Shown: piece after piece, positions 7,196-52,456 of the stretch
Numbering within the stretch: position 1 is the first letter of the stretch
Layout: the number at the start of each line of letters is the position of its first letter
Origin: an uncultured Clostridia bacterium
GTDB lineage: Bacteria > Bacillota > Clostridia > TANB77 > CAG-465
Direction: 5' to 3'
Assembly: GCA_944388575.1 (NCBI GenBank)
Contig: CALXJF010000004.1
Location: 4,122 to 68,121, forward strand
DNA: 64,000 nucleotides
Made by a program: the position numbers and the translations under genes
The notes under the pieces: model-generated
What the model was told of the DNA's origin: nothing
What the model saw: only the letters and a program-made list of their open reading frames with translations
Databases searched by the model: none

Positions 7196-7979
7196 CATAT
7201 AAATCATTTAATACTTTTGTTAATTTTCTACTCTTTCTTCTTCTTTTTAATATATCTAGATAATTAAAACTAAATTTACATATCATTTTAGCTACTACAT
7301 TTATAATTATTACTATAAAAAATGCTTTAATAAAAACTAAAAATATTTTTAAAGGGTTTAACATAATTTCCGCAATGTCTATATTTTTTAAACTATCAAA
7401 ATTTATAAATTCATTAAATTTATCTAATATAGATGTATCCACGTTAGAAATAGTACCTGCAATAAATCCAGTATTTATATTTTCATTTTCTTTATTAATA
7501 GTTTGTGTAACTTCTGAACTATTAATTTGTATTTTTGATGAAACATCTCCAATATTTATGTAACCGCTATTAGTTAATACTCTAATATCTTTTAATTTGA
7601 TATTTGCATATGATACTTTTAGACTTGACTTTGAAATAAATTTTATTTTTATTATATCATTACTTCTAATATTACTAATTACAAAAGTATTATTAGTTGT
7701 ATCGTATTCAATATTTTTACCTATATTATATAAAACAATATCACTTTTAGATACTTGATTAAAAATATGTTCATCATAATCCAATGTAAATTCAACTTTT
7801 TGTATGGTTTCATCTGATAACAAATTAGAAGTATTCAATGTAGCAAAAATTTCTTCATTTGGTCCTATACTCTCTTTACTAAAATTTAACTTAATATTTA
7901 AATTACTTACACCATATAGATTCTTTATACATAAAAAACATATTATAATCAGACTAAACATAATTTTTATTTTTCTCAT
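7191..7979 (-). CDS. signal-peptide protein with a cohesin-like beta domain and a C-terminal membrane anchor
   Basis: 262 aa with an N-terminal hydrophobic signal and a C-terminal TM plus basic tail (RRRKSRK). The central region resembles cohesin-type domains (EFTLDYDEHIF). The family call is weak. Confidence 0.5.
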   Translation of the reverse strand: MRKIKIMFSLIIICFLCIKNLYGVSNLNIKLNFSKESIGPNEEIFATLNTSNLLSDETIQKVEFTLDYDEHIFNQVSKSDIVLYNIGKNIEYDTTNNTFVISNIRSNDIIKIKFISKSSLKVSYANIKLKDIRVLTNSGYINIGDVSSKIQINSSEVTQTINKENENINTGFIAGTISNVDTSILDKFNEFINFDSLKNIDIAEIMLNPLKIFLVFIKAFFIVIIINVVAKMICKFSFNYLDILKRRRKSRKLTKVLNDLYE

Positions 7980-8126
7980 TTTTAAACACCATCTTTTATT
8001 ATATCTATTGTTTCGAAATTTACATAATTATTATATCATATTTTTTTATTTTGTAAAGCTTTTTAATCGATTTTATGTAAATTTATTTTTTCCATCGCCT
8101 GTATCTTAATAATTTTTAAAATTGTA

Positions 8127-8155
8127 TTGAAATTATCTGTGACTTGATGTATAAT
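8127..8155 (+). promoter_or_regulatory. promoter of the tRNA-Arg pair
   Basis: TTGAAA, 17-nt spacer, TATAAT with an extended -10 TG, ending 8 nt before the first tRNA. Confidence 0.55.
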
Positions 8156-8163
8156 AGTTATAT

Positions 8164-8240
<77 letters not shown>

Positions 8241-17354: not shown

Positions 17355-18620
17355 CTAAGTAAATAATGTATCTAATCTATCCTTTGCATCTTTCATTTTA
17401 TTATACTCTTTCGATGATAAGCTTGAACTACCTTTATCATAGTTATTTAATTCATCTTCTAATAAATATAATTCTTTAGAATATGTATTATCTACTACTG
17501 TCCATATAGCCGTTGGTTTTTTTACATTCATACTAATACTAGAATTCTTTACATTTCCATCTTTATCTTTAATTATAGTTTTCTTAAAATCAATATTTGC
17601 AATAACACTTAATGTATTTTCATCTGTAACATAACTTCCACAAAAATCTCCTAATGAATATATTGAATATATATGTTTACTATCTGCAGTTTGTTCTTCT
17701 ATACTTTCTTGAACTACCATACTTCCAGAACCTAACACTACATCTATACCTGCTTCAAATAATTTTTCAGTTGTCTTTTTTTGAGTAGAATTAACCATAA
17801 TTATATCTTCATTTGGTACATTTAAATAAGCCACAATAAAATCTACTGAATTATTTTTTAAATATTCAACATCCTCTTGTAATTCCTCCTCATCAAATAC
17901 ATTTAGAAGATATGTATTACTGCTTGACATTTTTACATTTGATGAAGTAGCATATGAAATAAATCCTATTTTTATATTATTTTTTTCTAATATGATCGGC
18001 TCTTTTCTATAGTCTAAATTAATTCCAGTTTGTTTTATACCAGCTGATTCTAAATTAGCAATAGTATCTTCAACACCTTTTTCATTTTTATCAAGTGCAT
18101 GATTTGTTGCAGTAGCAACAGCTGATATATTTAAATTTTTTAATAACTCTACTACTTCTTTAGGTGCATTATATACTGTTTTTGTTGAATAACCAAGACT
18201 ACTATCTGCAATAGGAGTTTTTAGACTTGCAACAACAAGATCATATTCTTTTAAATTATCTGCAATGGTAGCTGTCCCTTGTGTAAAATCATACGTACTT
18301 CCACTCCTAGCTCCTCTTATCATATTAGTAGTAAAATATATATCTCCAAGTCCAGCAAATCTTAAAGTATACTCTTCAGTTACATCTGTGGGTGACTTTT
18401 CTCCTATAATCATTTCTATAAAAGCATTAACTCCATTATATAGCCACATTGTTTCTTTATCTCTTTTTCCAAGCGTATACATTACTAACTGAAATAACTG
18501 ATATATAACAAAGATTGAAATAATTATCCATATAACCATTACGATTATATTTTTCTTTGTAACCTTATTCTTTTTAATTTTAGTTTTATCTTCCTCAGTT
18601 TCTATACTACCTTTTCTCAT
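17355..18620 (-). CDS. CapA/PGA_cap-family metallophosphatase-like membrane-anchored protein
   Basis: 421 aa with an N-terminal TM, then FAGLGDIYFT, ATNHALD and the GSGSMVVQ pattern of CapA-family proteins. It starts 45 nt downstream of the ATPase operon with no terminator between them. Confidence 0.75.
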   Translation of the reverse strand: MRKGSIETEEDKTKIKKNKVTKKNIIVMVIWIIISIFVIYQLFQLVMYTLGKRDKETMWLYNGVNAFIEMIIGEKSPTDVTEEYTLRFAGLGDIYFTTNMIRGARSGSTYDFTQGTATIADNLKEYDLVVASLKTPIADSSLGYSTKTVYNAPKEVVELLKNLNISAVATATNHALDKNEKGVEDTIANLESAGIKQTGINLDYRKEPIILEKNNIKIGFISYATSSNVKMSSSNTYLLNVFDEEELQEDVEYLKNNSVDFIVAYLNVPNEDIIMVNSTQKKTTEKLFEAGIDVVLGSGSMVVQESIEEQTADSKHIYSIYSLGDFCGSYVTDENTLSVIANIDFKKTIIKDKDGNVKNSSISMNVKKPTAIWTVVDNTYSKELYLLEDELNNYDKGSSSLSSKEYNKMKDAKDRLDTLFT

Positions 18621-18665: not shown

Positions 18666-19397
18666 CTATAAATTGTTACATATTTGCAACTGCATATTTG
18701 ATAATTTATCCTTTTTATTATTTACTAATTTCATCATATTTTGAATTATATTAATTTCTTTTACACATTCAATATCATTTGCTACTTTGTTTCTTTCCCT
18801 ATTTAAAGCTTTAGCTAAATTATTCATTTTTTCAAAATCAAGTTTTTCGTAATATTTATACCACTCTTTACACTTATCTTTAAATTTATCAGCTCTATTT
18901 AAAATATTATTTATCCCACTTTCAATTTTATTACTAAAAGATTTATTAAATATAAAATCTTTAGTTTTATTTATAAAATCTTTTATTATATTATAAAAAA
19001 TATTATTTTTTAAATATTTATTAGTAACTATATCTATAGCAGCACAGATTCCTTCTCTTAATCCACCTTTAAAAGTAATATCTGTAATTTTAGTTATATC
19101 AGTTATAACATTTTTGGGCAATTTTAATAATTCTAATCCTTCACTAATACTACTTCCAACAGCAGTTTTAATTATTTGCTTAAAATCTTTTGTCTCAAAA
19201 GATTTCTTTACATCTAATAATATATTTTTTATATTATTATTAATCGGCATTGATTTTATAACATAATCAGCCCCCCTATTTACTACATCAAAAGCAAGAT
19301 TTGAGAAAACTCTTTGTGATCTATTTGCAGCTACATCTATCTCAATATTTCTATCTCTATTTTTTATAATTTCATTTGAATCTATTAATAATTCCAT
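18666..19397 (-). CDS. soluble helical/coiled-coil protein of unknown function (last gene of the ATPase operon)
   Basis: 243 aa with no TM segment and a GGGAGG SD. Its start lies 1 nt after the stop of the platform gene. Confidence 0.6.
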   Translation of the reverse strand: MELLIDSNEIIKNRDRNIEIDVAANRSQRVFSNLAFDVVNRGADYVIKSMPINNNIKNILLDVKKSFETKDFKQIIKTAVGSSISEGLELLKLPKNVITDITKITDITFKGGLREGICAAIDIVTNKYLKNNIFYNIIKDFINKTKDFIFNKSFSNKIESGINNILNRADKFKDKCKEWYKYYEKLDFEKMNNLAKALNRERNKVANDIECVKEINIIQNMMKLVNNKKDKLSNMQLQICNNL

Positions 19398-19398
19398 T

Positions 19399-20286
19399 TT
19401 ATTCCTCCCTTTTTATAATTTTCATAATAGTTAAAATAATTATCAAATATAAAAAAACGTTAAAATCAATTAAAACTCTACCTAAAATTGAATTAAATAT
19501 TATCTCTTTATATATTGTATTTTTTAAAATAACGTAGAACACTAAGAAAATATTTACTAATATAATAATTCCTAATATAAATAAATAATAATTCATTTTT
19601 TCTTTCTGTTTTTTTCGTAAACTACTAATTTGCACATAATATTTATTAAATTGATTTATAACTTTACTTATGCATCCTCCATTTATATAACATAACTTTA
19701 ATAAGTGAATAAATATATTTATTTCTTTTATATTTATTTCATCAGCTAAAAAATTAAGAGCTTTAACTATTTCAAATCCACTGTTTAATAAATTATTAAA
19801 TTCATTAATAAATATATTCAAAGGCTTAGTAGCTTGAATTTGTTTTAATGCCATAATAATATCATTTGAATTTTTAGAAAAACTTTCAAATCCTATAATA
19901 TATAGTGAAAAAGATTTCTTTATTTTATTTTTTAATTGTATTTTTATTATTTCTAAAAATAACATTGGTAAAATAAAGAATATTATAGAAATTATAAATG
20001 AACTAAGAATTAATTTTAAATTATAAAAAACTAGAATAAAAACTATTATGGCAAAAATAACAGAAAAAACAAATAAGTTAAAAGTATTAATTATTGATAT
20101 ATTAATAGGATATACTTTTTTTATATAATCTAAAGATTTAGATATATTTTTAATATAATTATTTTTTTTTACAAAATATTTAAAAATTTTAATTATGTTA
20201 GTATAATTTAATGATAATATATAATTTATTATATGGTAAATTAGTATTAGCGTAATTATACATATAAAAACTTTAATAATTATCAT
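19399..20286 (-). CDS. T2SS-F / TadB-TadC-like platform membrane protein
   Basis: 295 aa with the layout N-terminal TM, cytoplasmic helical domain (IIMALKQIQATKPLNIFINEFNNLLNSGFEIVKALNFLADEI...), then C-terminal TMs. ATGA overlap with the upstream ATPase gene. Confidence 0.72.
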   Translation of the reverse strand: MIIIKVFICIITLILIYHIINYILSLNYTNIIKIFKYFVKKNNYIKNISKSLDYIKKVYPINISIINTFNLFVFSVIFAIIVFILVFYNLKLILSSFIISIIFFILPMLFLEIIKIQLKNKIKKSFSLYIIGFESFSKNSNDIIMALKQIQATKPLNIFINEFNNLLNSGFEIVKALNFLADEINIKEINIFIHLLKLCYINGGCISKVINQFNKYYVQISSLRKKQKEKMNYYLFILGIIILVNIFLVFYVILKNTIYKEIIFNSILGRVLIDFNVFLYLIIILTIMKIIKREE

Positions 20287-21443
20287 CTAGGATACCTCTT
20301 ATAAATAGATCTGATAAAGTATTTATTTTTCTTTAAATCGTATTCTATATTTCCAATTTCTTCTATTTTATAATCTTTCATAAAAATTATACAGTTAATA
20401 CAACTATACAGTATTTTTTTTATGAACTCTTCGTCATACTTTTGTGCTTTTATATCTCTTTTACATAGAAGTACTAATCTGTCTATTACAGTAAAAATAG
20501 AATCTGCATGTACTGTCGAAAAACCTATATGTCCAGTATTAATAGCATCAAAAAATACAGAAGTTTCTTCTCCTTTTAATTCTCCAACTACAATTATATC
20601 GTTTGACATTACTAAACTATGTTTTAATAAAGTCTTTAAATCAATTCTATTATTAATTTTATTCATACCAATTTCTCTTTGGATAATATTTTTATTTTCT
20701 ATAAATAATTCACTAGTCTCCTCACATACAGTCATAGGTATTATATCTGGAAAAGTTGTTAAAATTGTTCTTAACAACGTAGTTTTTCCGCTACCTCCTT
20801 TTCCTGCTATTATGGTACTATACCTATTATTTATTATATATCTTAGTTCTTTTAAACTCTTCTCATCTAACATTTTCTTTTTATATAAATCATTTAAATT
20901 ATAATTACTAAATCTATGTATTCTTATAATTAAGTTATCATCTATATAATTAATTGGAGATATTCCAGCTTCTATTCTAAGCTTATATTCTTTATCACTA
21001 ACAATAACAATAGGGTTATCATAATTAATAACACCATTATTTTTTACAATACAATATTTAATGTAATCTCTAAATTCTTCCTTGTTATTAAATTTTTCAT
21101 CAACAATTTTCCATGCTCCATTTATTTTTATATATACTAGATTATATCTTACTACTCTTATATCAGACACACTCTTATTATCTATATACTTTTGAAGAAC
21201 TCCATATCCAAAAATTTTATTTAATACACTACTTATTATATCTTTATAATTATAACTCTTATCAACACAATATTTTAAACAGATATATTCTTTTATTTTT
21301 CCTTCAAAAAAATCCTTATTTTTAGTAAATAGATATTTAGAATAATTTGTAGATATATATTTTATTACTTCATCAATATCTACTGTACTGTTCTTTTCTT
21401 TTATAATATTTTTTTTACTAACATCAAAAGGATTAATTATCAT
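20283..21443 (-). CDS. CpaF/TadA/VirB11-class secretion ATPase
   Basis: Walker A GKGGSGKTTLL, Asp box CEETSEL, Walker B IIVVGELKGEE, His box NTGHIGFSTVHA. Confidence 0.88.
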   Translation of the reverse strand: MIINPFDVSKKNIIKEKNSTVDIDEVIKYISTNYSKYLFTKNKDFFEGKIKEYICLKYCVDKSYNYKDIISSVLNKIFGYGVLQKYIDNKSVSDIRVVRYNLVYIKINGAWKIVDEKFNNKEEFRDYIKYCIVKNNGVINYDNPIVIVSDKEYKLRIEAGISPINYIDDNLIIRIHRFSNYNLNDLYKKKMLDEKSLKELRYIINNRYSTIIAGKGGSGKTTLLRTILTTFPDIIPMTVCEETSELFIENKNIIQREIGMNKINNRIDLKTLLKHSLVMSNDIIVVGELKGEETSVFFDAINTGHIGFSTVHADSIFTVIDRLVLLCKRDIKAQKYDEEFIKKILYSCINCIIFMKDYKIEEIGNIEYDLKKNKYFIRSIYKRYPR

Positions 21444-22653
21444 ATTTCTTTCCTATTGTATATATTTTTTTCAATAAATTATATCTATTACAATCTGATT
21501 TTAATCCTAAACTTTTATATAACATATTCATATCTATATCTATATTTAAATTAATACTTCCTCCATTTATATACGCTTCAACCTCTTTATAATAATCTAA
21601 TGTACATACAATTTTATATCCATTTAATAATGACTCAATTTGTTTTTTATCTAAAGAATCCTTTTGCCTTTTGTTAATGATTAAATGAATTTTACCTGTA
21701 TCATTATCCCAAAACCTTGTTATTAAATTAATATACTTTATAGCTTGTCTAATACTCATGTAGTTTGCATTAATAATAAATAATATTTTATCAGCTATAT
21801 TTAACGTATAAGGAACCACATCTAAAAAAGGTGATGATGGTAAATCTATTAAAGTATAATCACATTTTTTATGCACACTACTATATAACTTATCATAATA
21901 CTTACTAGATAGCTTATTTTGACAATCAAATAAACTGCAATTATTTGTTATGTACCAAAGATTTTTATTATCACAATCCTTAATCATATATTTTGAGATT
22001 ATGCTATTAACATCTTCTGAATTGTCTACACTTTCCACTATTTTGGAAAAAAGTGCATCTTTTTCATCGATGTTATTTATAATATCAATAGAAGGAGATT
22101 GTATATCCATGTCAAGAAGAGCAACCTTTATTTTAAAATCTTTTGCTAGTTTTTTTGCAATAATACTTGAAACTACTGATTTTCCTGAACCACTAGTACC
22201 GTAAATAGCTATAATTTTTTTAGTTATAACGTTATTATCGATTATATAATTTTGTGTTTCCTCTTTTATTACTTCATTATTTTTATATACAACCTTTTTA
22301 TCCTCTGTTATACTAGTTAATACCTCATTAATATCTATCTCTTCTCCTTCAATAATATTAAATACTTCATTTGCGAATAAAAATTCTTTATACTCCTTTG
22401 TTAATCTATTAACTAAATAAACAATATTAGTTTTAGGATTTGCTAATTTTATTTGTTTTATATACATTTTATTATCAATATTTCCATTTAAACTATCTCT
22501 TGTTACAAGAATAAATTCTGTATCATTTTGACTTAGAAATTCTATTACATTTTCTTTGGAATCTATATCATATTTATAAACCTTGTCTTTTACAAATTTA
22601 TTATTTATTCTTTTATATATTTCTTCATTATCAAGTGCGACCAATATATTCAT
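21433..22653 (-). CDS. TadZ/CpaE-like protein: atypical receiver domain plus a ParA/MinD-type ATPase
   Basis: The N-terminal region of about 120 aa has a receiver-like beta-alpha pattern (ILVALDNEE..., FILVTRD). The C-terminal part has the deviant Walker A IAIYGTSGSGKSVVSS and LLDMD. Start set at ATG 22653 (AAGGTG SD). Confidence 0.72.
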   Translation of the reverse strand: MNILVALDNEEIYKRINNKFVKDKVYKYDIDSKENVIEFLSQNDTEFILVTRDSLNGNIDNKMYIKQIKLANPKTNIVYLVNRLTKEYKEFLFANEVFNIIEGEEIDINEVLTSITEDKKVVYKNNEVIKEETQNYIIDNNVITKKIIAIYGTSGSGKSVVSSIIAKKLAKDFKIKVALLDMDIQSPSIDIINNIDEKDALFSKIVESVDNSEDVNSIISKYMIKDCDNKNLWYITNNCSLFDCQNKLSSKYYDKLYSSVHKKCDYTLIDLPSSPFLDVVPYTLNIADKILFIINANYMSIRQAIKYINLITRFWDNDTGKIHLIINKRQKDSLDKKQIESLLNGYKIVCTLDYYKEVEAYINGGSINLNIDIDMNMLYKSLGLKSDCNRYNLLKKIYTIGKKYDN

Positions 22654-24400
22654 TATTTTCACCTTCTATTATCTCATCTTCATAATTGCTTGCCTTAACT
22701 TTTAATACTGTATTATTATTACAAAATCCCAATAACATACTTCCTTTTTCTAATCTAGATACATCTTTTAATGTATCTTTAGCTATGACATTCAACTTAG
22801 ATAAAACTTCACTATCTGAATACTCTAATTTAAAAAACACCTTAAATTCAGAGTTGTTTAGTATAACTTTACCATAGTTTCCTTTATTTATACTAAAAAA
22901 ATCTGAAATATCTTGAGTTATTGTAACAATACTTGCCTTATTTTTTCTAATAGACTTATATAGAGAACAAATTAATTTAGCTATATTTCCATTTACATCA
23001 TTATTTATATATTTCCATAATTCATCTACATATATAATAACATCATTATTTAATCTATTATTTCTTAAATATTTATTTATCTTATTTAATAAATAAGATA
23101 CTACAACCTTCATTTTATCATATGTTAAAAAGCTCGTATCAAATACGACACTTGTATCAAGATTAATATTAGAATAATTAGAAAATTCACTATATTCATC
23201 TACTATATATTTTATTTTTTTTCTTAAATCATTTTCACTTATTTCATTAAGCAGATCATACATATTTGGAAACATATTATTTTTTTTAAGTTTTTTTTCT
23301 ATAAATATCTTTTCATCAGTATTTTCTATATATAAACTATTGATATCATAAGTAATGTTTTTTTCTAAATATACTTTTATCAAATAATCTTTTAAAATCT
23401 TTTTATCATTATTGTTAAGTTTTACAATAATAGAAATAAAGTCTATTATTTCTTGAATTTTATATTTTAATACATTAGATTCATATATTTCTATATCGCC
23501 CTCATTTATATCCATTATATTAATAAATTTATTATTATTTTTATTTCCAAACCTTACTAAATTTATATTTAATTTTTCAGCTAAATTATTATATTCTCCT
23601 TCAATATCAAATATATATTGTATTTTTCCTTTTAAAAAATGTCTTAAAACAATCAATTTAGTAAAATATGATTTACCACTACCACTACTACCTAATATAA
23701 TAATATTAGAATTTATATATTTTCTATCAAATATATCTATAATACTTAACTTATTTTCATTTTTGGTATAACCAAATATTATTCCATTTTTATCAAATGC
23801 ACTCCTAGTATAAAAAGGGAATATATTGGATAATGTAGAAGTAGTAATATTTCTATAGTTTTTATTAATTAAAATATTATCATAATTATTTATTGGTAAT
23901 GTTAATATATAGGAATCTAAATTTCTAAAATTACTTATATTAGAATAAATCTGTTTTGAAAAAAGTTTGCTTTGAAAATTTTTTATTATTTTAAATAATT
24001 CATCTTTATTATATGAGTAAAAAGTTATAAATAAGTTAAATTTATATACTTCTTCATTATTAAGTTGTATTTGCTTTCTTAATTCTTTTGAATCTATTTG
24101 TTGTTTATTTAATAAATCTATATCAATTTGATTTTTATTTGTTGTTTTTAATTCAGATTTATAGTTTGATAAATTATATGATATATCTTTTAGAACTTTT
24201 AAAGTATCTAATTTTTGAATATAAATACTAACATCATACATATATTTTTTTTCTATTGAATTAATTATTTGAGTAAAATATATTTTTACAGGATAATCAT
24301 ATATAACTAAACTAGCAATATATTTATCATCTACTTTTAAATAATTAAAATTAGAATTATCTATAAATGATGGAAAAAAATTAAATTTTATATTATGCAA
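22631..24400 (-). CDS. VirB4-family (TraE/TrsE-like, AAA_10) ATPase, main body
   Basis: FFPSFID...YIASLVIYDYP entry motif, Walker A ILGSSGSGKSYF, FDIEGEY, Walker B IIYVDELWKY, and VTITQDISDF. TTG start, in frame with the upstream 170-aa ORF. Confidence 0.8.
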   Translation of the reverse strand: MHNIKFNFFPSFIDNSNFNYLKVDDKYIASLVIYDYPVKIYFTQIINSIEKKYMYDVSIYIQKLDTLKVLKDISYNLSNYKSELKTTNKNQIDIDLLNKQQIDSKELRKQIQLNNEEVYKFNLFITFYSYNKDELFKIIKNFQSKLFSKQIYSNISNFRNLDSYILTLPINNYDNILINKNYRNITTSTLSNIFPFYTRSAFDKNGIIFGYTKNENKLSIIDIFDRKYINSNIIILGSSGSGKSYFTKLIVLRHFLKGKIQYIFDIEGEYNNLAEKLNINLVRFGNKNNNKFINIMDINEGDIEIYESNVLKYKIQEIIDFISIIVKLNNNDKKILKDYLIKVYLEKNITYDINSLYIENTDEKIFIEKKLKKNNMFPNMYDLLNEISENDLRKKIKYIVDEYSEFSNYSNINLDTSVVFDTSFLTYDKMKVVVSYLLNKINKYLRNNRLNNDVIIYVDELWKYINNDVNGNIAKLICSLYKSIRKNKASIVTITQDISDFFSINKGNYGKVILNNSEFKVFFKLEYSDSEVLSKLNVIAKDTLKDVSRLEKGSMLLGFCNNNTVLKVKASNYEDEIIEGENNEYIGRT

Positions 24401-24409
24401 TTCCTCCTC

Positions 24410-24922
24410 CTATAATTTGTTTAAATGTTTATATAATATCTTTTCAAATTCATATCTACCATGTACTCTAATTACTTTACAACCAATCTCTTCAAGTTTA
24501 TAAACAACTCTATCATACTCATCAACATTTATTTTTTCCTTACTATTTTCAGATATTACAATTAAAATTTTTGTTTCATATACATCTTCAATCTCTAATT
24601 TTTGTTTTATATCTTCAATGTATTTTATATATATATCAAGTGGAATTATTTCTTTATATGAATAATACCTTTCTATATAATTATCTATATCTAACCTCTC
24701 ATTAGATATAACAATCTGTATTTTAAAATTACATTCTCTTAAAAGCTGAGTATATACTTCTATAATGTTGTATTGTATACTTTCTGATAAATCTAAAAAC
24801 AGTACAGGTTCTATTCTATATAAATATACCCTTTCAATATTTTTATTTATTCTTGTTAAAATGTACTCATCTTTCACAGCCTCAATTTTAAATAATTCTT
24901 CTATATCTTTATATTTTGACAT
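24410..24922 (-). CDS. detached VirB4 N-terminal domain (170 aa)
   Basis: The pattern I..I.......Y.I.P......S......II..Y..LL....FKIQIVI, then a K.EE.G.KV....G.E.... tail, matches from memory the first ~170 aa of Gram-positive VirB4 proteins. It is separated from the ATPase body only by TAG plus 3 codons in the same frame. Confidence 0.55.
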   Translation of the reverse strand: MSKYKDIEELFKIEAVKDEYILTRINKNIERVYLYRIEPVLFLDLSESIQYNIIEVYTQLLRECNFKIQIVISNERLDIDNYIERYYSYKEIIPLDIYIKYIEDIKQKLEIEDVYETKILIVISENSKEKINVDEYDRVVYKLEEIGCKVIRVHGRYEFEKILYKHLNKL

Positions 24923-24958
24923 ATCCCTCCTTTGATTATATAAACATTTTATATTTAT

Positions 24959-24987
24959 ATATTAATACAATTATGTAAAATTGTCAA
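24959..24987 (-). promoter_or_regulatory. sigma-A type promoter of the VirB4/Tad-like operon
   Basis: On the minus strand: TTGACA (24987-24982), 17-nt spacer, TAATAT (24964-24959), about 35 nt upstream of ATG 24922. Confidence 0.6.
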
Positions 24988-25009
24988 CCATTTTTTGTTT
25001 ATTTTTCGT

Positions 25010-25023
25010 CGCAAGTTTCGACA
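25010..25023 (-). promoter_or_regulatory. conserved 14-nt element TGTCGAAACTTGCG (contains a Spo0A-box-like TGTCGAA), copy 1
   Basis: Identical to the 14-mer at 26415-26428. In both cases exactly 22 nt separate it from a TTGACA -35 box. Confidence 0.6.
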
Positions 25024-25053: not shown

Positions 25054-25082
25054 TTCACAGTTTTAAAAGTAATGCATATAAT
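25054..25082 (+). promoter_or_regulatory. divergent promoter of the small-protein operon
   Basis: TTCACA, 17-nt spacer, TATAAT. It lies 31 nt from the 14-nt element. Confidence 0.5.
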
Positions 25083-25115
25083 TAATATATATACATATAA
25101 AAGGAGATGATTAAC

Positions 25116-25307
25116 ATGAACAATAATTCAAATGAAATGAATAATATGTTAAACTCAAAACTAGTAGAATTGCTGTCTAATATTGATAAAAACAAAATAG
25201 AACAAGTTAGTAGAATGGTACAGAATATGTCAAGTGAAGACTTAACAAATTTGGTTGGAATGCTTAGTAAACAAACAAACAAAAATAATAATTCTCAAAA
25301 TACTTAA
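25116..25307 (+). CDS. small Asn-rich soluble protein (63 aa)
   Basis: GGAGA SD 8 nt before ATG 25116. First of three tightly packed genes. No family recognised. Confidence 0.55.
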   Translation: MNNNSNEMNNMLNSKLVELLSNIDKNKIEQVSRMVQNMSSEDLTNLVGMLSKQTNKNNNSQNT

Positions 25308-25309
25308 TT

Positions 25310-25768
25310 ATGAATGAAAATACAACTCAAAGTACTGAAAACCAAACTGCACTATATGATTTAATTCAAAGCATTCAATCAAAAATGGATTTAAAAAAAG
25401 TTGAACAAATTGAAGAAAATAATACTAAAGAAAATAATGAATTAAATAAAGAAGAAAATATAATAAATAGTAATAATAATATTTCTTCATTGTTAAATAA
25501 TTTAGATATTTCTAAAATTATTGGAATGTTTAATTCAAACTCAAATTCTAATACAAATGAAAATATTTTTAATGATATAGATCCAAATACCATTCTAAAA
25601 ATACAAAAAATTATTTCAAATTTTAGTAAAAATGATCCTAAAAAAGATCTTCTAAAATCATTAAAACCGTTTCTTAGAAAATCAAGACAAGATAAAATAG
25701 GAGAATATATAACTATTTTATCACTAGTTGACGCAATAGATATTTTTGGTAGTAAAGGTAGTGATTAA
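25310..25768 (+). CDS. Asn/Glu-rich protein with a conserved-looking C-terminal helix (LKSLKPFLRKSRQDKIGEYITILSLVDAIDIF)
   Basis: 152 aa. Its start is 2 nt after the upstream stop. Confidence 0.55.
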   Translation: MNENTTQSTENQTALYDLIQSIQSKMDLKKVEQIEENNTKENNELNKEENIINSNNNISSLLNNLDISKIIGMFNSNSNSNTNENIFNDIDPNTILKIQKIISNFSKNDPKKDLLKSLKPFLRKSRQDKIGEYITILSLVDAIDIFGSKGSD

Positions 25769-25769
25769 A

Positions 25770-26210
25770 ATGTTCAATCAATATCCATATTTTAGATTTA
25801 ATAATACATATAATAGATTTAACAATTATAATCCTGCCTTTTTTACTAAAAAAAATAATGTAAATCCTATTCAAGAAGATAAAAAAAACAATGAAGAAAT
25901 AGAAGAAAATTTATATAATCAACCAAAAACAGATGACGCCACTAATTCAGATAATGAACAAGAAAAAAGAAAAACTAACCATACAAATAATGAATCAAAA
26001 AATACAAAATTTAGACTAGGTCCTATTGATATCACAAATGAAAGATTATCAATTTTTGGATTTAGTATTGCCTTTGATGATTTATTATTAATTGGTTTAA
26101 TTCTAATACTACTATTAGACTCAGATTGTGACTATGCCTTAATAATAGTATTAGGTCTAATGTTATTAAATATTAATATTAGTAGTTTAAATCTTTTTAA
26201 ATTCTTCTAA
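25770..26210 (+). CDS. Asn/Tyr/Phe-rich protein with C-terminal TM helices
   Basis: ATG 25770 lies 1 nt after the upstream stop. MFNQYPYFRFNNTYNRFNNYNP..., with C-terminal LLLIGLILILLLDSDCDYALIIVLGLMLL. Confidence 0.55.
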   Translation: MFNQYPYFRFNNTYNRFNNYNPAFFTKKNNVNPIQEDKKNNEEIEENLYNQPKTDDATNSDNEQEKRKTNHTNNESKNTKFRLGPIDITNERLSIFGFSIAFDDLLLIGLILILLLDSDCDYALIIVLGLMLLNINISSLNLFKFF

Positions 26211-26339
26211 ATCTTTATAATATTTTACTAATAATTTGTCAATTTCTACACTAGTCTCATATATTGTATCATATGAGTCTTCTTTTTTTATCTGTTCTTC
26301 TAATTTCTTTTTTAAAATATCTATTTCTTCAACAATCAC
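26187..26339 (-). CDS. Spo0E-family aspartyl-phosphate phosphatase-like protein (50 aa)
   Basis: GTG 26339 sits 9 nt after AAGGAG. MIVEEIDILKKKLEEQIKKEDSYDTIYETSVEIDKLLVKYYKDLEEFKKI fits the Spo0E pattern (I..L...L........S.E.D.LI..YY). The track start (TTG 26405) overlaps the predicted promoter. Confidence 0.6.
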   Translation of the reverse strand: MIVEEIDILKKKLEEQIKKEDSYDTIYETSVEIDKLLVKYYKDLEEFKKI

Positions 26340-26363
26340 TTTAATCAACTCCTTTGTAACATA

Positions 26364-26392
26364 TTTATACCATTTATGACTCCGTATGTCAA
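26364..26392 (-). promoter_or_regulatory. sigma-A type promoter of the Spo0E-like gene
   Basis: On the minus strand: TTGACA (26392-26387), 17-nt spacer, TATAAA (26369-26364). Confidence 0.55.
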
Positions 26393-26414
26393 TATTTGTT
26401 GTCAAAAAATCGTT

Positions 26415-26428
26415 CGCAAGTTTCGACA
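26415..26428 (-). promoter_or_regulatory. conserved 14-nt element TGTCGAAACTTGCG, copy 2
   Basis: Same sequence and same 22-nt distance to the -35 box as copy 1. Confidence 0.6.
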
Positions 26429-26563: not shown

Positions 26564-27310
26564 TTAAGAAAAATCATATATGTTTTTAGGTTTATCCACA
26601 ATACTTGTAAAACATATCTTGTCACAAGTAATACCCGTTACCAAATATTTGTCTGGTTGAATTAATATAAGTGTGGCAAATACAGGTATATTATCTTTAG
26701 GAAATCTACCAACAACACTAATTACAGAAGATTCTCTTAAATTCCCAATAACTTTATAGTTATTAGATTTTCTAAAAAAATCCACGATCGATTTAGAAAA
26801 GTAAATAATACTATTTCTTGATTTTCCGCCTTCTTTTTGAAGAAAAATGAAAGGATCTTCTTTTATTTCAATAATCTGCTTCTTACAGGTATTTATATTA
26901 TATTTAGATTTAATTTGATTTAGTGTTTTAGAAATCTCACTATTAAAGTTCTTAAAACAGTTATACTGTTTATAATCCTTACTAACTAAAGCATCTTCTT
27001 TATTTAATCTTAGACTATATCTATACTGACCAAAATATGGTACATCAAATTGAATATATGAATTCTCAATTTCATGAATATTTCCATTTACTAGTACAAA
27101 TCTCGATATAATAACTTTAAATGTAAAAATTTTTATATTTCCTTCTTGTCTTAAGGTTAATGATCTAAGAAATTGCTTAAGGTCAGATTGTTTTTGATAT
27201 ACGGCAATATTAGGATACATATCCATTTTTGCCTTATCAGATAAAAAATAAGCAACTCCATAAAGATCAATATCATAATTTTCTACTCGTTCTTCCTTGT
27301 TATTAAACAT
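26564..27310 (-). CDS. hypothetical protein (248 aa)
   Basis: Has its own promoter (TTGACG, 17 nt, TATAAT on the minus strand at about 27350-27385) and a GGAGG SD. It sits downstream of the M16 pair, where Bacillus carries ymf genes. Family not recognised with confidence. Confidence 0.6.
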   Translation of the reverse strand: MFNNKEERVENYDIDLYGVAYFLSDKAKMDMYPNIAVYQKQSDLKQFLRSLTLRQEGNIKIFTFKVIISRFVLVNGNIHEIENSYIQFDVPYFGQYRYSLRLNKEDALVSKDYKQYNCFKNFNSEISKTLNQIKSKYNINTCKKQIIEIKEDPFIFLQKEGGKSRNSIIYFSKSIVDFFRKSNNYKVIGNLRESSVISVVGRFPKDNIPVFATLILIQPDKYLVTGITCDKICFTSIVDKPKNIYDFS

Positions 27311-45038: not shown

Positions 45039-45280
45039 TTATCCACAGTGCTGTGGATAACTTTTTTACAATAAAACATACATTCTTTTATAAAAATTTA
45101 AAATAAAAAAACTCAAAAAGTATTGTATTTTCAAACTATTCATGATATATTTACTTTAGCAATTTTTATTTTATTTTTCACATGTTTCACATTAATCCAC
45201 ATTAATTATGTAAAGATAATTTTTAGATACTATTATTTTGTCGAAAAGTTATCAACACCTGTGGATAACTCTGTGGATAA
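45039..45280. other. oriC, upstream DnaA-box cluster (incA-like)
   Basis: TTATCCACA (45039) and TGTGGATAA (45052) as an inverted pair. Also TTAATCCACA (45192), TTATCAACA (45249), and TGTGGATAA twice (45260, 45272). TGTCGAA lies at 45239-45245. Confidence 0.85.
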
Positions 45281-49639: not shown

Positions 49640-51571
<1,932 letters not shown>

Positions 51572-51580
51572 TAGAATTAT

Positions 51581-51620
51581 AAAACTACTTTATTATAAAA
51601 AATTAATAAAGTAGTTTTTA
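51581..51620 (+). terminator. strong terminator directly after gyrB
   Basis: AAAACTACTTTATTA / TAATAAAGTAGTTTT, a 15-bp stem. Confidence 0.7.
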
Positions 51621-51650
51621 TTGAATGTATTAAAAAATAAGAGGTATAAT

Positions 51651-51743
51651 ATGTTAAAATCATTAAAAGATATAATAATAAAAAAATGCTTATTAATTGG
51701 TATTTCGATTCCTATACTTGTATTATTAAGATTTACAGATTAA
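51651..51743 (+). CDS. possible 30-aa membrane peptide
   Basis: AAGAGGT SD 5 nt before the ATG. MLKSLKDIIIKKCLLIGISIPILVLLRFTD. Short and unsupported by homology. Confidence 0.3.
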   Translation: MLKSLKDIIIKKCLLIGISIPILVLLRFTD

Positions 51744-51948
51744 AATGGTAATACAATAAATAATGAACAGACAAAAATGTAACCATTAGTTTATTGGATG
51801 ATAATTTAATTAAAGCCAATAATTTTATAGGAAAAATATATAATATAATGGATTTTCATTAGAGATTACAGATTTTTTATAGAAAAATATAACAATAAAA
51901 TACATGAATAATTATTTTTGTGTATTTTATTGTTATAATAATACTTTT

Positions 51949-52137
51949 TTAAATAGAATATTCTTTTGGACAATTTTGAATTATCCATTTTTCTAATTCA
52001 AATTTAGCTCCTATATAGGTATAACAATTTGGTGTAACATCTTCCCAATCAGTATATTCACCACAAAATATATTATTCCATGTAGCATATACTTGTCCAT
52101 ACCACCAATTACCAACTTTAATAATTCTTTTTTTCAT
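51949..52137 (-). CDS. small Trp/Cys-rich hypothetical protein (62 aa)
   Basis: AAAGGAG SD before ATG 52137, followed by a 14-bp hairpin terminator (51889-51935). Confidence 0.5.
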   Translation of the reverse strand: MKKRIIKVGNWWYGQVYATWNNIFCGEYTDWEDVTPNCYTYIGAKFELEKWIIQNCPKEYSI

Positions 52138-52256
52138 ATTACAAGCTCCTTTCAAAATAAATTATTTTTTGAATAAATATAGTATTAAAACTATTATATT
52201 ATAATTCAATCAAAATTACAAGGTTATAAATTTTTTGTTAATTATAGAATTAAATG

Positions 52257-52456
52257 TTGACAATTATTAAAAAATTATGTATAATACTATTTGTAAAGTA
52301 GAGGAAATCTTCTCACCTTATGGTTATGTCTTAATAAGGTTATACAATAATATACTTATTACATATGTAATATATTTATATATTTGCGTATGTAGATATA
52401 TTGGAGTTAATGAGAAGGTTGCCTTAATATAAAGAGCAATCTTTTTTTATATATTT
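52257..52456 (+). promoter_or_regulatory. promoter plus L20-type leader/attenuator of the infC-rpmI-rplT operon
   Basis: TTGACA (52257), 17-nt spacer, TATAAT (52280). A leader of about 160 nt ends in the terminator hairpin AAGGTTGC / GCAATCTT plus a T-run (52415-52448), just before infC. The arrangement matches the Firmicute L20 leader. Confidence 0.6.

Follow-up and report, generated by a model that had tools for sequence, protein, structure and literature searches.

The DNA analysed here is a stretch of 64,000 nucleotides (nt) of contig CALXJF010000004.1 from an uncultured Clostridia bacterium, in the following referred to as the window. It contains an operon of six translationally coupled open reading frames (ORFs) on the minus strand (18666-24922), in which a VirB4-family ATPase is combined with components of a Tad-like apparatus. 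A preliminary description, made from the sequence alone, had reported six coupled genes with their junctions; the re-read coordinates and junctions match it exactly. The first gene, g170 (170 amino acids, aa; 24410-24922), encodes a free-standing VirB4 N-terminal domain in a TrsD/TraD-like split, and the second the VirB4-family ATPase body (589 aa; 22631-24400), assigned by NCBIfam and PDB profiles. They are followed by the genes for a ParA-like protein with a receiver-like N-domain and a MinD/ParA-class ATPase (409 aa; 21433-22662, alternative start 22653), a CpaF/TadA-type secretion ATPase (386 aa; 20283-21443; Pfam T2SSE), a single TadB/C-like platform protein with a T2SS-F domain (295 aa; 19399-20286; Pfam T2SSF), and g243 (243 aa; 18666-19397), an all-helical soluble protein of a lineage-restricted family. 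Of the two clades of related loci, only Group A, to which the window belongs, has CpaF and the platform. From g170 to g243, the junctions measure 9 nt, −32/−23 nt, −11 nt, −4 nt, and +1 nt, and no terminator-like sites were found between 18300 and 26700. The platform is the sole predicted membrane protein among the six products. The GC content of the operon (19.7%, compared with 24.8% for the 64-kb window) places it in the low quartile of genes, in line with the earlier impression that it is more AT-rich than its surroundings. Recent horizontal transfer was considered as a cause of the low GC content and rejected, because the synteny is conserved (see below) and other genes of the window span the value (minimum 17.7%).

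The ATPase body matches the NCBIfam models VirB4_plasma (2e-52), conju_CD1110 (5e-43), and TraC (2e-27). Its scores are lower than the curated equivalog cut-offs (178 vs. 590 bits for VirB4_plasma, 147.5 vs. 325 bits for CD1110), and the protein is therefore assigned to a divergent subfamily. Residues 203-582 match the structure of VirB4 from Thermoanaerobacter pseudethanolicus (PDB 4AG5) at 5e-25. The motifs GSSGSGKS, FDIEGEY, VDELW, and TITQD, on which the preliminary description had based its identification of a VirB4 ATPase, are present; the profiles and 4AG5 agree with that identification, even though the curated cut-offs are not reached. The Walker A and B motifs are invariant in 14 diverse relatives, and no transmembrane (TM) segment is predicted. 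Profile searches with g170 of the window alone gave no match in Pfam or NCBIfam. Its orthologue in a related locus (L043; related loci are cited by L numbers) matches positions 1-148 of conju_CD1110 (8.5e-10), the TrsD/TraD family (8e-6), and positions 102-268 of VirB4_plasma, and the fused sequence of g170 and the body from the window aligns to positions 100-893 of VirB4_plasma. These alignments indicate that VirB4 is split into two genes. Together with a plasmid-encoded counterpart (6e-16; see below), they support the earlier reading of g170 as a VirB4 N-domain.

In PADLOC, the VirB4 body matches mad8 (1.2e-18) and, weakly, several HerA models. An anti-phage or anti-plasmid defence system built on a HerA/VirB4-like ATPase could be read from these matches, which are limited to the ATPase, but we regard it as very improbable and rejected it: the score of the VirB4 family is far higher (178 vs. 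66 bits), no other partner of a MADS or HerA system was matched, and the operon occupies a fixed position in the core genome, outside any defence island, with Spo0A boxes in its promoter.

The ParA-like protein matches CbiA (4e-10), and the profile of its family matches MinD (PDB 4V03) at 1.7e-17. The Walker A motif of the family reads G[TP][SN]G[SAV]GK[ST] and does not contain the ParA signature lysine (pattern KGGxGK[ST]). The N-domain of about 120 aa resembles receiver domains weakly, with response regulators matched in register at E = 0.026. The hidden Markov model (HMM) of the family also matches the gene upstream of cpaF in the plasmid pVpro and in the loci L108 and L110. By homology and position, the protein thus appears to be TadZ-like. 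Of the TadZ/CpaE architecture proposed before, the MinD-class ATPase and the homology to Tad loci were substantiated, while the receiver part is weak. A single-sequence AlphaFold2 (AF2) model of the protein was unusable (predicted local distance difference test score, pLDDT, 34.8), and a C-terminus resembling an amphipathic membrane-targeting sequence (MTS) was dropped as a feature for its low conservation.

For g243, AF2 gave a confident model (pLDDT 88.6) that is all-helical; no TM segment is predicted. The soluble nature of the protein had been stated correctly in the preliminary description, but the coiled coil it had proposed is not borne out by the model. A Foldseek search with the model returned no PDB match at E ≤ 0.001, and the sequence had no match in Pfam, NCBIfam, PADLOC, or the PDB profile search. 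Pfam scans of longer family members were likewise without a match. The family is small and stands alone, with 166 clusters in all among 1.84 billion representatives. Its gene follows the ParA-like gene, or the CpaF-platform pair, in both clades.

The fourth gene product was identified as a CpaF-type ATPase by Pfam T2SSE (6e-25). Among PDB profiles, afGspE and CpaF (both about 3e-21) precede VirB11 (5e-14), and all four ATPase motifs are readable in the sequence. The protein, formerly classed as CpaF/VirB11 with four intact motifs, hence resembles CpaF and archaeal GspE more than VirB11. An identity as SpoIIIAA was rejected (spore_III_AA 27 bits, cut-off 281). The platform protein of the window alone matches T2SSF weakly (E = 0.04), but all ten platform family members examined match this Pfam family (best 3.4e-7). 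It contains about five TM segments, with TM regions at residues 1-27, 61-119, 230-259, and 266-291. The family-wide matches agree with the single T2SS-F/TadB-C platform of the preliminary description.

The nearest relatives of CpaF outside the module are located in complete Tad loci of monoderm bacteria (e.g., the metagenome loci L107-L110), which also encode TadC, a Flp-type pilin of 63-66 aa (KG|FSE), TadE/F-like pseudopilins, CpaB, and a prepilin peptidase. Since the closest CpaF relatives lie in such complete loci, the absence of these genes from the operon is interpreted as a derived loss. In the 64-kb window, phmmer and regular-expression searches of all ORFs of at least 30 aa revealed no pilin-like, prepilin peptidase, TadC, TadE/F, CpaB, or PrgI-like ORF and no class-III signal pattern; the platform gene is the only T2SS-F gene, and a second, TadC-like platform was not found. 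Proteins of the VirB3/PrgI, VirB6, and VirB8 type and a cell-wall hydrolase were found neither in the operon nor in the window or the inspected related loci, whereas genes for PrgI, a protein in the VirB6 position, and a hydrolase are present in plasmid relatives. A VirD4/TcpA coupling protein and a relaxase were not detected within ±10 kb, either in the window or in relatives with annotated neighbours. The operon has neither an integrase nor an att site beside it, no integrase is encoded in the 64-kb window, no tRNA gene flanks the operon, and mobile-element genes are absent near the module in the window and in loci with annotated neighbours. These scans agree with the list of missing genes in the preliminary description for pilin, peptidase, TadE/F, coupling protein, relaxase, hydrolase, and integrase.

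Measured against what defines a type IV secretion system (T4SS), the operon is without channel, hydrolase, coupling protein, and relaxase in the window and the inspected loci; measured against a Tad system, it is without pilin, peptidase, second platform, and CpaB in the window. It belongs to neither canonical class, as had been proposed. A working Tad-type pilus or pseudopilus in the lineage of the window, with pilins and peptidase encoded elsewhere in the genome and VirB4 as an accessory, is nevertheless to be weighed, given that the TadZ-like protein, CpaF, and the platform form the cytoplasmic and inner-membrane core of Tad systems and that the closest CpaF relatives outside the module reside in complete Tad loci. 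We consider such a pilus quite unlikely. The genes missing from the 64 kb (pilin, peptidase, TadC, TadE/F, and CpaB) are contiguous in the related Tad loci, one platform gene is present instead of two, and CpaF and the platform are dispensable: Group B and the loci L010 and L011 retain VirB4, the ParA-like protein, and g243 without the pair.

Upstream of g170, a tandem Spo0A-box element, TGTCGAAACTTGCGA, was identified on the minus strand (25009-25023), with an exact 0A box at 25017-25023. It is followed 21 nt downstream by a sigma-A-type promoter (TTGACA-17-TAATAT; 24959-24987, minus strand) and by the ribosome-binding site of g170 (GGAGGG; 24925-24930, minus strand). The 15-mer occurs twice in the window (0.03 expected). 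Its second, identical copy (26414-26428) lies 21 nt upstream of the −35 box in TTGACA (26387-26392)-17-TATAAA, the promoter of a Spo0E-like gene on the same strand (26187-26428 including the 0A element; Pfam SpoOE-like 23.7 bits, cut-off 23). The TTG listed as the start of this gene at 26405 is part of a TTGACA hexamer, and the gene really begins with the GTG at 26339.

The alignment of the sequences upstream of g170 in relatives displayed the architecture TGTCGAA-n3-TGnCGAA-8/10 nt-TTGACA-17-TAnnAT. In 38 of 70 loci, the 350 nt preceding g170 contain an exact TGTCGAA box, in each case on the strand of the gene; the locus background is 0.079 per kb. The spacers between the first 0A box and the −35 hexamer TTGACA amount to 9, 19, or 29 nt and are thus helically phased. 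In 49 of 72 relatives, the module is preceded by the tandem 0A boxes with the promoter, an enrichment of about 110-fold against the background; with one mismatch allowed, the site was detected in 8 of the 16 loci of Group A and in 40 of the 51 of Group B (0.95 per kb upstream, 0.0086 elsewhere). Composite sites of 0A box and TTGAC away from the module in Group A map upstream of the Spo0E-like gene (e.g., in L001, site at 7973 and gene at 7996-8214). The TGTCGAA boxes are hence placed at the promoter, as predicted for a member of the Spo0A regulon. Tandem boxes just upstream of the −35 box are the arrangement of Spo0A-activated sigma-A promoters, which makes activation the likelier direction of control, judging from the promoter layout. 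The promoter element shared with the Spo0E-like gene, in which the preliminary description had seen a hint of sporulation-linked control, is therefore a tandem Spo0A box conserved upstream of the module in most relatives; the weakest point of that description has thereby become the strongest of the new evidence. In the whole window, seven exact Spo0A boxes were counted (1.7 expected); one of them (45239-45245, plus strand) is located in the origin region and precedes the called start of dnaA by about 70 nt.

For the ancestry of the module, HMMs built from the chromosomal families were searched against plasmid genes. The closest plasmid relative of the CpaF of the window is encoded on pVpro of Vallitalea pronyensis (NZ_CP058650), in a co-oriented cluster with the order PrgI - 253 aa - VirB4 - 562 aa - M23 - 427 aa - TadZ-like - CpaF - T2SSF - ... 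- SAF/CpaB. A plasmid of Paenibacillus thiaminolyticus (NZ_CP106993) carries PrgI, a g170-like gene, VirB4, and M23 in this order and, 10 kb off, AAA - CpaB - AAA - CpaF - TadB - TadC - Flp-like - prepilin peptidase; a gene of the relaxase type lies close by. The g170 HMM matched the gene of 331 aa that immediately precedes VirB4 on the Paenibacillus plasmid (6e-16), the VirB4 body HMM the VirB4 proteins of the Paenibacillus plasmid (2e-85) and pVpro (8e-54), and the ParA-like HMM, over the full length, the two Paenibacillus AAA ATPases that flank cpaB next to cpaF (2e-27 and 1e-26). The CpaF and platform HMMs matched the CpaF (1.5e-67) and the T2SS-F protein (7.5e-29) of pVpro. VirB4 identity to any plasmid copy did not exceed 27%. 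Plasmids of the pAW63 type have been reported to carry VirB4 together with VirB11 and VirD4 (PMC9673590). Because the profiles tie five of the six window genes to clusters on Firmicutes plasmids that hold a VirB4 T4SS and Tad-like genes, the origin of the module is conjugative.

A scan of one genome per species for relatives of the VirB4 body revealed at least 505 species-level genomes that encode one. All carriers are metagenome-assembled genomes of uncultured Clostridia or Bacillota (e.g., Clostridium sp. CAG:465, CAG:793, and CAG:921), which we take to be gut lineages of the GTDB TANB77 type. Gene order was analysed in 79 loci, in which the module is chromosomal, embedded in core synteny, and composed of intact coupled ORFs. 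In the loci with annotated neighbours, no relaxase, coupling protein, integrase, or flanking tRNA gene was seen. In a neighbour-joining tree, the chromosomal VirB4 proteins are monophyletic with respect to plasmid outgroups and divide into Groups A and B. Group A has the arrangement yqeY - M16 - M16 - spo0E-like / p154 - p152 - p66 <-> module - capA-like, with the module g170 - VirB4 - ParA-like - [CpaF - platform] - g243. In Group B, the order is dnaA - dnaN - recF - gyrB - [g170 - VirB4 - ParA-like - g243] - gyrA. The whole of Group B lacks CpaF and the platform, as do L010 and L011 of Group A. The conserved core therefore consists of the split VirB4, the ParA-like protein, and g243 and contains no predicted membrane protein; the three-ATPase membrane machine proposed before is not the unit that is conserved. 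Because CpaF and the platform occur in basal as well as derived Group A loci and lie beside the ParA-like gene on plasmids, they are probably ancestral, with later losses in Group B and in L010/L011.

The Walker A and B motifs and the other catalytic residues are invariant across sequences that are 33-70% identical. Judged from these comparisons, the module is vertically inherited, under purifying selection, and not a fossil. The preliminary description had offered the fossil of a plasmid-type conjugation region as one reading, of which the plasmid-type origin is retained for five of the six genes, whereas the fossil is contradicted by the conserved synteny of at least 79 inspected loci and by relatives of the VirB4 body in more than 500 genomes. 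A decaying remnant of an integrated conjugative element, devoid of a present function, is strongly disfavoured. Such a remnant would fit the conjugative ancestry, the disappearance of most T4SS and Tad parts, and a GC content below that of the flanks, but not the number of species with a relative, the 79 loci with intact coupled ORFs, the invariant catalytic residues, the conserved promoter, or a monophyletic clade with two stable core syntenies; nor was an integrase, att site, or flanking tRNA gene found.

Two further observations concern the related loci. A third, small group (L071, L073, and L077) has g170, VirB4, and a ParA-like protein of 345 aa, without g243, beside metabolic genes. In L077 (9384-13310), the genes downstream of the module were considered as a transfer cluster, which was rejected, as they encode a ParE-family toxin, followed by pyruvate:ferredoxin oxidoreductase and alcohol dehydrogenase. 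In Group B, a conserved non-coding element with a length of about 400-450 nt, a candidate structured RNA, lies divergently from the module (e.g., L022:8705-9095(−), L043:8693-9136(−), and L025:8770-9162(−)), in the position occupied by p66-p152-p154 in Group A. It has its own promoter-like sequence, and tandem Spo0A boxes lie between the promoters of the RNA and the module. The candidate RNA was found in 45 loci and accompanies the module even where gyrB and gyrA are not its neighbours. Its covariation is strong: RNAalifold predicted 136 pairs, 53 of them with compensatory changes, compared with 24.6 in shuffled controls (0 of 500 reached 53) and 8-16 in slid controls; the strand was fixed by conserved G-U pairs. 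It has no match in Rfam and was not found in the window or in viral contigs, where two pattern matches occurred without the RNA and without the module.

The operon is surrounded by housekeeping genes around oriC, with dnaA at about 45.2 kb at the switch of the GC skew, which agrees with the neighbourhood and the nearby origin reported before. A capA-like gene (PGA_cap 6e-43; 17355-18620, minus strand) starts 45 nt downstream of g243 and encodes a protein with an N-terminal TM segment. It follows g243 in most Group A loci and may be co-transcribed with the operon, judging from its distance and from the lack of a terminator-like site in between. On the other side, the Asn-rich p66-p152-p154 operon (25107-26210, plus strand) is oriented divergently and adjoins the intergenic region with the 0A boxes; a promoter-like sequence, TTCACA-17-TATAAT, is located at 25054-25082. 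The C-terminal hydrophobic stretch of p154 is TM-like in appearance. None of the three proteins has a family match in Pfam or PADLOC, and p152 and p154 have none in NCBIfam. In nearly all of the Group A loci that were examined, the three genes keep their place beside the module; given this synteny and the common 0A-box region, they may belong to the same regulon or system. Further along the window, the gene for a 248-aa protein without a family match (26564-27310, minus strand) separates the M16 peptidase genes from the Spo0E-like gene; the protein was found only in contigs of the same species and not in other Group A loci. About 880 nt separate gyrB (49655-52456 region) from infC-rpmI-rplT, which come after it, and gyrA lies outside the window. 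Two adjacent genes with a Gate domain (PF07670; 5750-6873, minus strand), presumably SpmA/SpmB-like, and an M23/M50 peptidase pair at about 60.1-61.9 kb suggest that the organism is a spore former.

The location near the origin is one of the arguments for a cytoplasmic role in DNA handling during sporulation, in which VirB4 and the ParA-class ATPase would act on the chromosome, for example in origin capture or forespore segregation, without membrane transport. The module is origin-proximal in both clades and lies between gyrB and gyrA in Group B, its promoter contains Spo0A boxes, the conserved core is without a membrane protein, and VirB4 belongs to the HerA-FtsK superfamily. Nonetheless, this role appears unlikely. 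Genes for soj and spo0J seem to be present in the window already (about 35.4-37.1 kb, judged from ORF sizes and position), the ParA-like protein does not have the signature lysine of DNA-binding ParA proteins and is akin to ATPases of Tad loci, no DNA-binding partner was detected, and Group A retains a membrane platform within the operon.

Taken together, the comparisons show the operon to be a domesticated ATPase core of a Gram-positive plasmid-type VirB4 T4SS and a Tad-like pilus apparatus. The best explanation of the whole, to which we assign a probability of about 55%, is that this core is vertically kept, switched by Spo0A, and works as a translocation or assembly machine positioned by the ParA-like ATPase. 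A single fixation of the module in an ancestral chromosome, that of the forebear of a large clade of uncultured gut Clostridia, would have been followed by vertical inheritance. In the process, the envelope parts (VirB3/PrgI-like, VirB6-like, hydrolase, pilins, prepilin peptidase, and CpaB) and the DNA-processing parts (coupling protein and relaxase) would have been lost, with the split VirB4, the TadZ-like MinD/ParA-class ATPase, and g243 presumably retained everywhere and CpaF and one platform retained as well in the clade of the window. From its sigma-A promoter and tandem Spo0A boxes, the module would probably be turned on when Spo0A~P rises, as the cells enter the stationary phase or sporulation, and the neighbouring gene for the Spo0E-like phosphatase would be switched on together with it.

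The ParA-like ATPase, with g243 as an adjacent partner or adaptor, may place the VirB4 hexamer at a defined site of the envelope, most likely the pole or the asymmetric septum, and in the lineage of the window also the CpaF-platform pair. The ATPases positioned in this way would drive the translocation or assembly of some macromolecule. TadZ-class proteins place Tad machines at the poles. The genes for ParA/MinD ATPases usually lie next to those for their cargo and a partner (PMC10241942), and a pairing of VirB4 with a ParA/MinD protein is found in the domesticated archaeal Ted system, with VirC1 in the same role in Agrobacterium (PMC9905601). It is on these precedents that the positioning of VirB4 by the ParA-like protein and g243 is proposed.

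Several observations weigh against the proposed positioned and Spo0A-switched machine. The core comprises neither a membrane protein nor an identifiable substrate, channel, or filament subunit, so that the term translocation is extrapolated from VirB4 proteins elsewhere, and the predicted assignment to VirB4 is made with scores that remain under the curated cut-offs of NCBIfam. TadZ of Eubacterium rectale (PDB 3FKQ) was not among the best 60 PDB profile matches of the ParA-like family, and the g243 HMM had no detectable homologue in the plasmid clusters. With respect to regulation, half of the Group A loci have no recognisable 0A site upstream of g170, in the closest relatives of the window (L007 and L015) and several further Group A loci the intergenic region is short and no box can be recognised in it, and the promoter, which already has a consensus −35 box, would not obviously need an activator. 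The negative results cover the window and the inspected loci, and missing partners may be encoded elsewhere in the genome.

A bolder and more doubtful version of the domesticated machine, which we put forward as speculation, is that a large clade of uncultured, spore-forming gut Clostridia turned a conjugation/Tad apparatus into a Spo0A-switched machine of sporulation or the stationary phase, with g243 as a new partner and, in the sister clade, perhaps a dedicated structured RNA read divergently from the shared Spo0A-box region. Such a machine may, for example, move DNA or protein at the pole or septum, or release or take up DNA at the onset of sporulation. If the module is functional at this stage, it would represent a new ATP-driven component in the early sporulation of an abundant uncultured gut lineage. 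It would also offer a natural minimal system for the action of VirB4 without a channel and for the positioning of cargo by TadZ-class proteins, and the conserved promoter renders the regulatory claim directly testable.

Among known systems, the Firmicutes plasmid clusters (pVpro, the Paenibacillus plasmid, and tra regions of the pAW63 type) are similar in that they contain homologues of both parts of the split VirB4, of the TadZ-like ATPase, and of CpaF and the platform; in pVpro, the genes for the TadZ-like protein, CpaF, and the platform even share their order in a co-oriented cluster. The plasmid clusters additionally contain PrgI, the large protein in the VirB6 position, the M23 hydrolase, CpaB, pilin-like proteins, prepilin peptidase, and relaxase/VirD4-type genes, none of which occurs in the window; the module of the window includes g243 in addition, is chromosomal and core-syntenic, and is preceded by Spo0A boxes. 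The monoderm Tad loci (L107-L110) share the order TadZ-like - CpaF - TadB and a CpaF identity of 32-34%. They have no VirB4 but do possess TadC, pilin, TadE/F-like proteins, CpaB, and peptidase, which is the reverse of the situation in the window. The division of VirB4 between two proteins, a small one for the N-domain and another for the ATPase body, resembles TrsD/TraD and TrsE/TraE of staphylococcal conjugative plasmids (pGO1/pSK41 type), where, unlike in the window, they are part of full conjugation operons. By analogy only, the pair of CpaF and platform is reminiscent of SpoIIIAA-SpoIIIAB of the sporulation "feeding tube," in which an ATPase of the secretion superfamily and a GspF-like platform are paired specifically for sporulation, also without a pilin. 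In contrast to the module, spoIIIA depends on sigma-E and not on Spo0A boxes and has no VirB4 or ParA-like partner.

T4SS parts are known to have been re-used to deliver effectors, to take up DNA (ComB), and, in archaea, to import DNA (Ced/Ted). The archaeal Ced and Ted systems are, like the module, chromosomal derivatives of conjugation systems that have no relaxase and are built around a VirB4-like ATPase, a likeness drawn from their descriptions. Ted loci also carry a VirC1-like ParA/MinD ATPase (PMC9905601). Unlike the module, Ced and Ted keep a VirB6-like channel and VirB2-like pilins, are archaeal, and have no sporulation regulator. In our literature searches, we found no description of the module, of any link between Spo0A and VirB4, or of a VirB4-Tad hybrid that is fixed in the chromosome of a Gram-positive spore former, wired to Spo0A, and stripped of its envelope parts. 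The closest concepts are relaxase-less, re-used T4SSs (Guglielmini et al., PMC3548315) and the archaeal Ced/Ted systems, to which the module adds an undescribed, Spo0A-linked re-use of T4SS and Tad ATPases that is real and conserved.

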